From assembly GCF_003334355.1 (NCBI RefSeq), contig NZ_QOWP01000019.1: a stretch of DNA of 64,000 nucleotides; one strand, given 5' to 3'. The first letter of the stretch is position 1. Every line of letters starts with the position of its first letter. Positions 1,646 through 4,856 of this stretch are shown one piece after another. The stretch is from Escherichia coli. GTDB lineage: Bacteria > Pseudomonadota > Gammaproteobacteria > Enterobacterales > Enterobacteriaceae. A program made the translations under genes and the position numbers. The notes under the pieces are model-generated. The model was not told the DNA's origin. It saw only the letters and a list, made by a program, of their open reading frames with translations, and did no database searches.

Positions 1646-3010
1646 TTGATTACACATATTAGCCCGCTTGGCTCCATGGATATGTTGTCGCAGCTGGAAG
1701 TGGATATGCTTAAACGCACCGCCAGCAGCGACCTCTATCAACTGTTTCGCAACTGTTCACTTGCCGTACTGAACTCCGGTAGTTTGACCGATAACAGCAA
1801 AGAATTGCTGTCTCGTTTTGAAAATTTCGATATTAACGTCTTGCGCCGTGAACGCGGCGTAAAGCTGGAACTGATTAATCCCCCGGAAGAGGCTTTTGTC
1901 GATGGGCGAATTATTCGCGCTTTGCAGGCCAACTTGTTCGCGGTCCTGCGTGACATTCTCTTCGTTTACGGGCAAATCCATAACACCGTTCGTTTTCCCA
2001 ACCTGAATCTCGACAACTCCGTCCACATCACTAACCTGGTCTTTTCCATCTTGCGTAACGCTCGCGCGCTGCATGTGGGTGAAGCGCCAAATATGGTGGT
2101 CTGCTGGGGCGGTCACTCAATTAACGAAAACGAGTATTTGTATGCCCGTCGCGTCGGAAACCAGCTGGGCCTGCGTGAGCTGAATATCTGCACCGGCTGT
2201 GGTCCGGGAGCGATGGAAGCGCCGATGAAAGGTGCTGCGGTCGGACACGCGCAGCAGCGTTACAAAGACAGTCGTTTTATTGGTATGACAGAGCCGTCGA
2301 TTATCGCCGCTGAACCGCCTAACCCGCTGGTCAACGAATTGATCATCATGCCAGATATCGAAAAACGTCTGGAAGCGTTTGTCCGTATCGCTCACGGTAT
2401 CATTATCTTCCCTGGCGGTGTGGGTACGGCAGAAGAGTTGTTGTATTTGCTGGGAATTTTAATGAACCCGGCCAACAAAGATCAGGTTTTACCATTGATC
2501 CTCACCGGCCCGAAAGAGAGCGCCGACTACTTCCGCGTACTGGACGAGTTTGTCGTACATACGCTGGGCGAAAACGCGCGCCGCCATTACCGCATCATCA
2601 TTGATGACGCCGCTGAAGTCGCTCGTCAGATGAAAAAATCGATGCCGCTGGTGAAAGAAAATCGCCGCGACACTGGTGACGCTTACAGCTTTAACTGGTC
2701 AATGCGCATTGCACCAGATTTGCAAATGCCGTTTGAGCCGTCTCACGAGAATATGGCTAATCTGAAGCTTTACCCGGATCAACCTGTTGAAGTGCTGGCT
2801 GCCGACCTGCGCCGTGCGTTCTCCGGTATTGTGGCGGGTAACGTAAAAGAAGTCGGTATTCGCGCCATTGAAGAGTTTGGTCCTTACAAAATCAACGGCG
2901 ATAAAGAGATTATGCGTCGTATGGACGACCTGCTACAGGGTTTTGTTGCCCAGCATCGTATGAAGTTGCCAGGCTCAGCCTACATCCCTTGCTACGAAAT
3001 CTGCACGTAA
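1646..3010 (+). CDS. ppnN: Nucleotide 5'-monophosphate nucleosidase PpnN (YgdH)
   Basis: 454-aa ORF recognised as PpnN/YgdH. Confidence 0.9.
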
Positions 3011-3020
3011 TCTCCCCTCC

Positions 3021-3056
3021 CCCGGTGACGTTTGTTGCCGGGTTTTCTCGTTTTTG
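3021..3056 (+). terminator. Rho-independent terminator after ppnN
   Basis: Short GC stem (cccgg...ccggg) followed by a T-rich run ttttctcgttttt. Confidence 0.5.
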
Positions 3057-3566
3057 GTCACTTACTCATCAACTCATTTCATTTGTTATATGAATGTTTC
3101 TTACCACCCTCACGCGACAAATATCATCACAGTTAATATGTCATACAATTTATATTGCAACGCAAACGTTTCCCTATTTTCATAAACCGTATTTTATCGC
3201 TATGAAAAAGAAATTATCGCCATGATTAACTAAAAGTATTGATTTTTTCAGTTCAACCTACATATATTGCGCGCCCCGGAAGAAGTCAGATGTCGTTTAA
3301 TGGGCAAATATTGCCCTTAAATTCTCTTTTACTTTTAATTTACAGAGTAAAGCGTTGGGATAATCTATCTTCCAAGTAGATTATTGTATTTGGGATCAAG
3401 ATCACTGATAGATACATAACTTGTGTGTATCTTTCCGCCCTCAAATTATTACGGCGGTAAATGATTAAGCCATCGCCGATAGACAGATTTCATTTTTACG
3501 GTCAGGCACCTTCCCGGGCTGAACTGGCTAAAAGCTGAATTATTTGCATTCCTCCAGGAGAAATAG

Positions 3567-4856
3567 ATGGAAACGACTCAAACCAGCACGATTGCGTCGA
3601 AAGACTCTCGTAGTGCCTGGCGCAAGACAGACACCATGTGGATGCTGGGCCTTTACGGCACGGCAATCGGCGCGGGCGTGCTGTTCCTGCCAATCAACGC
3701 CGGTGTTGGCGGTATGATCCCGCTGATCATCATGGCTATCCTTGCGTTCCCGATGACGTTTTTTGCTCACCGCGGCCTGACTCGCTTCGTACTGTCTGGT
3801 AAAAACCCGGGCGAAGACATCACCGAGGTTGTAGAAGAACACTTTGGTATTGGCGCAGGTAAACTGATTACCCTGCTCTACTTCTTCGCTATCTACCCGA
3901 TCCTGCTGGTTTATAGCGTGGCAATCACCAATACCGTTGAAAGCTTCATGTCTCACCAGCTGGGTATGACGCCACCGCCGCGTGCGATTCTGTCGCTGAT
4001 CCTGATCGTGGGTATGATGACCATCGTTCGCTTCGGTGAGCAGATGATCGTTAAAGCGATGAGTATTCTGGTATTCCCGTTTGTTGGCGTACTGATGCTG
4101 CTGGCTCTGTACCTGATCCCGCAGTGGAACGGCGCTGCACTGGAAACGCTGTCTCTGGACACTGCATCTGCAACCGGAAACGGTCTGTGGATGACCCTGT
4201 GGCTGGCAATTCCGGTAATGGTGTTCTCGTTCAACCACTCTCCGATCATCTCTTCTTTCGCCGTTGCGAAGCGTGAAGAGTACGGCGATATGGCAGAACA
4301 GAAATGCTCGAAGATCCTGGCATTCGCACACATCATGATGGTGCTGACCGTAATGTTCTTCGTCTTCAGCTGTGTACTGAGCCTGACTCCGGCAGACCTG
4401 GCTGCGGCTAAAGAGCAGAACATCTCGATTCTGTCTTACCTGGCTAACCACTTTAACGCACCGGTTATCGCGTGGATGGCTCCGATTATCGCGATTATCG
4501 CTATCACCAAATCCTTCCTCGGTCACTACCTGGGCGCACGTGAAGGCTTCAACGGTATGGTGATTAAATCTCTGCGTGGTAAAGGTAAGTCTATCGAAAT
4601 CAACAAGCTGAACCGTATCACTGCGCTGTTCATGCTGGTAACGACCTGGATTGTTGCCACCCTGAACCCGAGCATCCTGGGTATGATTGAAACCCTGGGC
4701 GGTCCAATCATCGCGATGATCCTGTTCCTGATGCCGATGTACGCAATTCAGAAAGTACCGGCAATGCGTAAGTACAGCGGTCACATCAGCAACGTATTCG
4801 TTGTCGTGATGGGTCTGATTGCAATCTCCGCAATCTTCTACTCTCTGTTCAGCTAA
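3567..4856 (+). CDS. sdaC: Serine:H+ symporter SdaC (HAAAP family)
   Basis: 429-aa polytopic membrane ORF recognised as SdaC; preceded by a ggag RBS. Confidence 0.95.

Follow-up and report, generated by a model that had tools for sequence, protein, structure and literature searches.

The long AT-rich gap upstream of Escherichia coli sdaC is probably a transcription-control region with a predicted class II CRP promoter

At class II CRP-dependent promoters, such as galP1 and melR, CRP is centered at -41.5 and overlaps the -35 element. The sdaCB operon is reportedly regulated by CRP and Lrp (Shao 1994; Kroner 2019). The gap upstream of sdaC resembles class II promoters in having a good CRP site (TGnGA-N6-TCACt) that abuts a weak -35, a recognizable -10 and a dependence on cAMP-CRP, and the spacing is likewise -41.5 if TATCTT is the -10. 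It differs from them in several respects: the start is one that we infer, a G+C-rich discriminator (TCCGCCC) follows the -10, the spacer is unusually conserved and carries a dyad, and 165 bp upstream there is another promoter-like element, which is independent of CRP. Long regulatory 5' UTRs, such as riboswitches, attenuators and leaders with an sRNA-controlled Rho site (for example, the rpoS leader), offer another comparison. Like them, the gap is AT rich and precedes a transporter/catabolic operon and, as with rpoS-type leaders, the sdaC mRNA is acted on by an Hfq-dependent sRNA (ArcZ). Unlike them, it has no conserved structure, Rfam family or premature 3' ends, and ArcZ acts at the sdaC ribosome-binding site rather than at the hairpins. 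The published work on sdaCB regulation (CRP, Lrp, YieP, cya suppressors and ArcZ) concerns the same locus and the same sequences, all within or edging positions 3057-3566 of the window, by which we mean the whole 64,000-nucleotide stretch of E. coli DNA that was analyzed. We conclude that the gap is probably a transcription-control region for sdaCB, with a class II CRP promoter that starts at ~3440, and not an RNA element. The region is ordinary and largely known, with most of its elements already published, and its overall importance is small, namely that of a control region of a well-known operon.

The gene order at the locus is queF, ppnN, sdaC, sdaB and xni, both in the RefSeq record of an identical strain and in that of K-12 MG1655, and neither record annotates any feature in the ppnN-sdaC spacer. 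This spacer (556 bp, 3011-3566) was found at an identity of at least 95% in 5,426 of 5,426 complete E. coli genomes, usually as one copy. Within it, the window differs from MG1655 by four SNPs (3016, 3154, 3337 and 3393) and no indels, and K-12 coordinates are obtained by adding 2,924,662 to window coordinates. The features that bound the gap are as follows.

1646-3010, plus strand: ppnN (ygdH) coding sequence, the upstream neighbor (open reading frame list; RefSeq of the identical locus and of K-12)
3021-3052, plus strand: ppnN intrinsic terminator, a stem-loop at 3021-3042 followed by a T tract (terminator scan; Term-seq)
3567-4856, plus strand: sdaC coding sequence (serine:H+ symporter), the first gene of sdaCB (open reading frame list; RefSeq)

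The original prediction of a long AT-rich gap upstream of sdaC holds: ppnN ends at 3010, the sdaC ATG is at 3567, and the G+C content of 3057-3566 is 36%, compared to 51% for the whole window. The ppnN 3' end has been mapped by Term-seq to K-12 positions 2927709/2927710 (Adams 2021), which correspond to 3047/3048 in the window. The same end recurs in a second supplementary table of that study, with a ratio of 2.2 and a p value of ~8e-10. We read this second table as reporting read-through in bicyclomycin (Rho inhibition); if so, read-through from ppnN would be stopped by Rho within the spacer.

To compare the gap across the family, we collected sdaC loci from representatives of 80 Enterobacteriaceae species and aligned the 700 bp upstream of the ATG. 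Segment identities are the means of 73 non-Escherichia species against E. coli.

3057-3159: mean identity 0.17
3160-3175, PurR-type box: mean identity 0.66
3176-3372, most of the segment: mean identity 0.41-0.45
3373-3440, core block: mean identity 0.78
3441-3548, leader: mean identity 0.47
3549-3566, ribosome-binding site: mean identity 0.83
sdaC codon third positions: mean identity 0.51

The strongest conserved block in the gap is thus 3373-3440, which aligns without gaps in 72 distinct sequences. All 72 share TTGnGATCnnGATCACTG (3390-3407) together with T3426, G3427, T3428, A3429 and T3433. Conservation peaks at the two CRP half-sites and at the first, second and sixth positions of a -10 element, which is the signature of DNA recognition and not of an RNA helix. 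Conserved blocks and transcript ends had been named as the evidence on which a functional gap would depend; the conserved blocks are clear, but the Term-seq tables of Adams 2021 place no transcript 3' end in the gap. On the pattern of their conservation, we read the blocks as probable DNA-level promoter elements, which include the following.

3388-3409, no strand: CRP site 1, core TGGGA-TCAAGA-TCACT at 3391-3406, center 3398.5 (invariance; ChIP-seq peak; motif search)
3406-3421, no strand: putative weak second CRP site, TGATAGATACATAACT (Haycocks 2015), overlapping the left arm of inverted repeat 2
3405-3433, plus strand: predicted proximal core promoter, with a -35-like CTGATA at 3405-3410, a 17-bp spacer and a -10 TATCTT at 3428-3433; predicted start ~3440
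3441-3566, plus strand: predicted sdaC leader, ~127 nt, with conserved islands TTACGG at 3449-3454 and ATTTCA..TTAC at 3486-3499

CRP site 1 has two mismatches to the TGTGA-N6-TCACA half-sites, and its G, GA and TCAC are invariant in the 72 sequences. The CRP motif alone gave 29 matches in the window against 26.7 expected, so it is not rarer than chance. CRP ChIP-seq in ETEC H10407 (Haycocks 2015) shows a peak at sdaC, for which AGTGATCTTGATCTCA and AGTTATGTATCTATCA were given as the sites. In reverse complement, the former is window 3391-3406, carrying the K-12 allele at 3393, and the latter is 3406-3421. The second of these sites is weak and was not retained: in its right half, conservation does not extend to the key C (alignment column 67).

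According to the literature, sdaC expression requires cAMP-CRP. CRP site 1 lies ~122 bp downstream of the distal promoter-like element (described below), too far downstream for CRP to activate that element, and a CRP-dependent promoter should therefore lie downstream of 3406. If TATCTT is the -10 and transcription starts at ~3440, the CRP site is centered (3398.5) at -41.5, as is canonical for class II. T3428, A3429 and T3433 are positions 1, 2 and 6 of this -10, and the Kluyvera version, TACATT, retains all three. The promoter matches the consensus at only 8 of 12 positions and so goes unreported by a simple sigma-70 scan, a low score that is expected of an activator-dependent promoter. We also considered a class I geometry, with a -10 of TATTAC at 3447-3452, a start at ~3460 and CRP at -61.5. 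It was judged less likely than TATCTT: the final T is missing, and only TTACGG is conserved. In the model that we favor, CRP at 3398.5 would activate the class II promoter CTGATA-17 bp-TATCTT, and transcription would start at ~3440 to give a leader of ~127 nt. The long 5' UTR that had been proposed would thus shrink to this leader, with most of the 510 bp being promoter and upstream regulatory DNA. We found no entry for an sdaC start site in the text of Kim 2012, Ettwiller 2016 and Mendoza-Vargas 2009, and in the literature on sdaCB we found neither a placement of the CRP site relative to a mapped start nor a discussion of the two inverted repeats.

Other factors were also sought around the core block. 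A CytR octamer was rejected: the sequence TTGCATT, which in E. coli reads TTGTATT, flanks the CRP site, but neither a second repeat nor an upstream CRP site accompanies it. Sigma-32 has been reported at sdaC (Wade 2006), and there is a sigma-32-like match, CTTGTG...CCCTCAAAT, with a spacer ~2 nt too short. A sigma-54-like GG-N10-GC in the non-Escherichia block TGGTAGCCTTCGCGC is a weak match and is absent from E. coli.

The only 9/12 sigma-70 match in the spacer lies farther upstream.

3239-3268, plus strand: distal promoter-like element of the sigma-70 type, TTGATT-18-TATATT; implied start ~3276 (promoter scan, 9/12 matches)

This element is weakly conserved in both its -35 and its -10, with a mean identity to other genera of 0.45. 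Two cya-suppressor insertions listed in Table S1 of Heyde 2021, +A at K-12 2927924 (window 3262) and +ATT at 2927928 (window 3266), both fall within its TATATT. In the cAMP-less cya strain, such insertions raise sdaC expression independently of CRP and allow growth on serine (Heyde 2021; Frendorf 2024). We read the element as a promoter that is weak, poorly conserved and independent of CRP and that would become active when mutated in cya cells; the insertions would improve it and thereby bypass cAMP. Our reading differs here from that of Frendorf 2024, which annotates the distal element as the sdaC promoter and states that experimental verification of any sdaC promoter is lacking. The annotated start traces to a reference whose title points to an analysis of promoter-like sequence signals. 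The comparative evidence puts the CRP-dependent sdaC promoter ~165 bp downstream of the element now treated as the sdaC promoter; if this is correct, the cya-suppressor mutations and the distances given for YieP would have to be reinterpreted.

A start at ~3276 would instead give a 291-nt leader, in which hairpins at 3360-3384 and 3407-3435 could control stability, Rho access or translation. That the distal element is the sole 9/12 match in the gap favors this arrangement, as does the effect of the insertions, since transcripts from the element can evidently reach sdaC. Yet its promoter is the poorly conserved one, and a CRP site inside a transcribed leader cannot explain activation by CRP. 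The conserved bases, moreover, are those of the CRP half-sites and the proximal -10. The remaining evidence on this alternative concerns the hairpins themselves, which derive from the first two of the inverted repeats below.

3360-3384, no strand: inverted repeat 1, ATAATCTA-N9-TAGATTAT, ~-80 to -56 from the predicted start
3407-3435, no strand: inverted repeat 2, GATAGATACA-N9-TGTATCTTTC, spanning the -35/spacer and -10 of the predicted proximal promoter
3177-3184/3201-3208, no strand: a third 8-bp inverted repeat, TTTTCATA-N16-TATGAAAA, with perfect arms
3297-3321, plus strand: Escherichia-specific palindrome, TTAATGGGCAA/TTGCCCTTAAA, whose RNA hairpin has a predicted energy of -10.9 kcal/mol (z -3.9)

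Both of the repeats originally described exist, although their positions needed correction. The 8-bp repeat ATAATCTA/TAGATTAT lies at 3360-3367/3377-3384, a shift of 1, and the 7-bp repeat AGATACA/TGTATCT lies not at 3400-3424 but at 3410-3416/3426-3432, ~8-10 positions away. The latter can be extended to 10 nt with one mismatch (3407-3416/3426-3435). The third repeat, which the original prediction lacked, is just downstream of the PurR-type box and has a z score of -3.3 as RNA. In 1,000 dinucleotide shuffles, perfect repeats with arms of at least 7 and loops of 3-20 occurred 1.0 ± 1.2 times, compared to 5 seeds in the gap (P = 0.023); for arms of at least 8, the corresponding values were 0.24 and 2 (P = 0.053). 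Short inverted repeats are thus slightly enriched in the gap over chance.

As isolated E. coli RNA hairpins, repeats 1 and 2 have predicted energies of -9.1 and -9.9 kcal/mol and z scores of -2.4 and -3.6, for segments picked post hoc, and the whole 315-nt stretch has a z score of -2.05. These values speak for a structured leader, but hairpin 1 is missing from both the minimum-energy and the centroid folds of that stretch. Covariation is not convincing in either repeat. In repeat 1, we found one clear compensatory event (C-G to U-A, in Escherichia), which counts in its favor, against an overall pairing of 62% of alignment cells that compares to 60.7% in shuffles. Only the inner CCAC/GTGG pairs of this repeat are kept (in 64-94% of species), while the outer five pairs are found in 19-82%. 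Its right arm lies within the family-wide conserved block and its left arm is weakly conserved. The perfect 8-bp form is a detail of the Escherichia lineage, and one of its pairs is lost through a T at 3362 in three more Escherichia representatives: a second E. coli strain, E. whittamii and an Escherichia sp. Repeat 2 shows no compensatory changes in either of its registers. The E. coli register pairs 68% of cells. In the majority register (GATACAT at 3407-3413/ATGTATC at 3425-3431), 88% pair, compared to 22-70% in slid registers, and a C-to-G change at 3411 (alignment column 60) stands uncompensated in 29 sequences. Term-seq tables, finally, show no 3' ends or processing products from such a leader. 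We consider a functional 291-nt leader improbable; it would apply only to transcripts from the weakly conserved distal promoter-like element.

Under the class II promoter model, repeat 2 would simply be the -35/spacer and -10 of the proximal promoter, its dyad being either incidental or the operator of a dimeric factor. Repeat 1 would adjoin the CRP site on its upstream side, with its conserved right arm, GTGGATTATTGCATT, belonging to the promoter-upstream block. An operator function for the dyads would be a compatible addition to this model. Repeat 2, which in many other genera reads GATACATT-N9-AATGTATC and spans -33 to -9, would then serve a dimeric repressor in competition with RNA polymerase and CRP, and repeat 1 (CCAC-N7-GTGG) would serve another factor. 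Several observations are consistent with this. A perfect 7-9-bp inverted repeat occurs in the repeat 2 zone in 32 of 72 species, the ancestral register pairs far more often than slid ones, and positions of the spacer between -35 and -10 (3412-3425) are conserved beyond what a plain sigma-70 spacer needs, several of them at 90% or more. A perfect DnaA box forms the left arm of repeat 1 in the Salmonella/Citrobacter clade. Lrp, moreover, is reported to bind and repress at sdaC. The opposing evidence is that both arms of repeat 2 are already accounted for, by the -35/CRP flank and the -10, that its register in E. coli differs from that in most genera, which argues against a fixed operator, and that conservation is poor in the left arm of repeat 1, which in E. 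coli does not resemble a DnaA box. We know of no described motif that matches the dyads. From the alignment, the conserved spacer dyad may be an operator, with Lrp as an obvious candidate, but we regard protein operators at the two dyads as doubtful.

The DnaA box just mentioned, TTATCCACA, is orthologous to 3361-3369 (loci L006, L010, L012, L021 and others). Of 72 species, 7 have it exactly and 11 with at most one mismatch, compared to 1.5% by chance. As an explanation of repeat 1 in E. coli it was rejected: it is specific to the clade, and the E. coli arm, with three mismatches, has lost the box. In a separate observation, the Escherichia palindrome GGGCAAATATTGCCC (3297-3321) precedes a T-rich stretch. 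At its position, most other genera (loci L006-L082) have the strongly conserved TAGCCTTCGCGCC, which is of equal length and also fits GG-N10-GC.

Searches for RNA elements in the gap gave negative results. A cmscan of 2500-4200 returned no Rfam match in 3011-3566 at E <= 10, and RNAalifold on 24 genera returned no consensus leader structure (-0.73 kcal/mol). A GC stem, CCGCC (3435-3439)/GGCGG (3453-3457), was rejected, as in neither of two registers does it perform better than shuffles or slid registers. The terminator scan found no terminator-like site on either strand after 3052, and in K-12 2927711-2928349, the interval that separates the ppnN terminator from sdaC +121, the Adams 2021 tables contain no Term-seq 3' end. 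What characterizes a cis-regulatory RNA, that is, a curated family, compensatory structure and a premature 3' end or terminator, was thus not found here, nor were the promoter with a terminator or 3' end of its own and the conservation as a unit that characterize an independent sRNA gene. The suggestion of an unannotated small RNA did not survive these searches, in which no family match, mapped 3' end, conserved structure or internal terminator came to light. A small protein fared no better. The 510-bp gap is large for E. coli, and a frame of 29 codons runs from an ATG at 3290 to 3379. This start codon is absent from some genera, Salmonella among them, however, and the first codons change nonconservatively within Escherichia, so the frame was rejected. 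With no RefSeq feature in K-12 or the matching strain either, an independent small RNA or small protein encoded in the gap is very improbable. A published sRNA contact lies at the edge of the gap.

3554-3565, plus strand: ArcZ sRNA pairing site, -13 to -2 relative to sdaC, overlapping the Shine-Dalgarno AGGAG at 3556-3560 (Papenfort 2009 via PMC11331407)

As far as the summary of Papenfort 2009 in PMC11331407 goes, ArcZ pairs with sdaC from -13 to -2. Overexpression of ArcZ reportedly lowers sdaC mRNA in E. coli.

The notion that the gap holds regulator-binding sites was borne out: YieP, Lrp and CRP sites and promoter-up mutations map within 3057-3566, and most of these are published. Upstream of the core block lie the following sites.

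3081-3095, no strand: YieP site 1, ATTTGTTATATGAAT (sequence from PMC8282354, found in the window); not conserved outside Escherichia
3136-3150, no strand: YieP site 2, ATATGTCATACAATT (sequence from PMC8282354), under an IPOD-HR and ChIP-exo peak
3160-3175, no strand: candidate PurR-type 16-bp palindromic operator, ACGCAAACGTTTCCCT, with two mismatches to ACGCAAACGTTTGCGT

Freddolino 2021 (PMC8282354) used the whole spacer as "the sdaC promoter" and reported binding by YieP along with a contribution to activation; ~200 bp downstream of the YieP peak, the same study draws an Lrp site. ChIP enrichment of Lrp at sdaC has also been reported (PMC2689187). In the class II promoter model, the upstream 300 bp would provide accessory sites, namely YieP sites, probably Lrp sites, the PurR-type box and the weak CRP-independent promoter-like element.

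The PurR-type box agrees with the consensus ACGCAAACGTTTGCGT in 14 of its 16 bases; one half-site is perfect, and the central CG is present. In the orthologous boxes of other genera, one or the other half is perfect. A box with at most four mismatches is present at the orthologous place in 49 of 78 species, compared to 2.5% of shuffles, and the mean identity of 0.66 contrasts with 0.17-0.47 in the flanks. The distance from the box to the center of the CRP site is always 230.5-233.5 bp (231 ± 1), though the intervening DNA is poorly conserved; this spacing corresponds to ~22 helical turns. The length of the leader, unlike this spacing, varies by ~25 nt across species. The 16-bp dyad with its central CpG resembles the PurR operators of the purine regulon. 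Unlike them, the box is a candidate by sequence and lies ~272 bp upstream of the predicted start (~108 bp upstream of the distal one). This distance from the start exceeds that of typical PurR operators. Our literature search found no paper linking PurR and sdaC and no co-occurrence of the two in the regulon papers that could be searched. In the YieP pulldown, the lysate was first passed over a purR-promoter bait and only a ~25-kDa band was analyzed, so PurR would have escaped detection.

The PurR-type box may be a new side observation at sdaC and, if real, hints that purine status and serine catabolism are connected in a way not yet described. A bolder extension is that sdaCB is wired to purine status and to a further factor, with the fixed-spaced box and the conserved dyad GATACATT-N9-AATGTATC forming a phased, possibly looped or Lrp-wrapped, undescribed nucleoprotein complex; the rich-medium-specific peak attributed to YieP could then be partly PurR, given the prior passage of the pulldown lysate over the purR-promoter bait. 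We think this extension unlikely.

Two minor observations concern the transcribed region. In Term-seq, a strong 3' end follows a GC-rich hairpin in the sdaC-sdaB spacer, 25 nt before sdaB at ~4889 (K-12 2929551), and another 3' end lies inside sdaC at +121, ~3688 (K-12 2928350); the former may mark an attenuator within the operon and the latter a site of early termination or processing. In the predicted leader, a direct repeat, ATTATTACGG/ATTTTTACGG, occurs at 3445-3454 and 3492-3501. Both copies keep their TTAC(G/C)G core across genera, and the repeat could be a contact motif for a protein or an sRNA.
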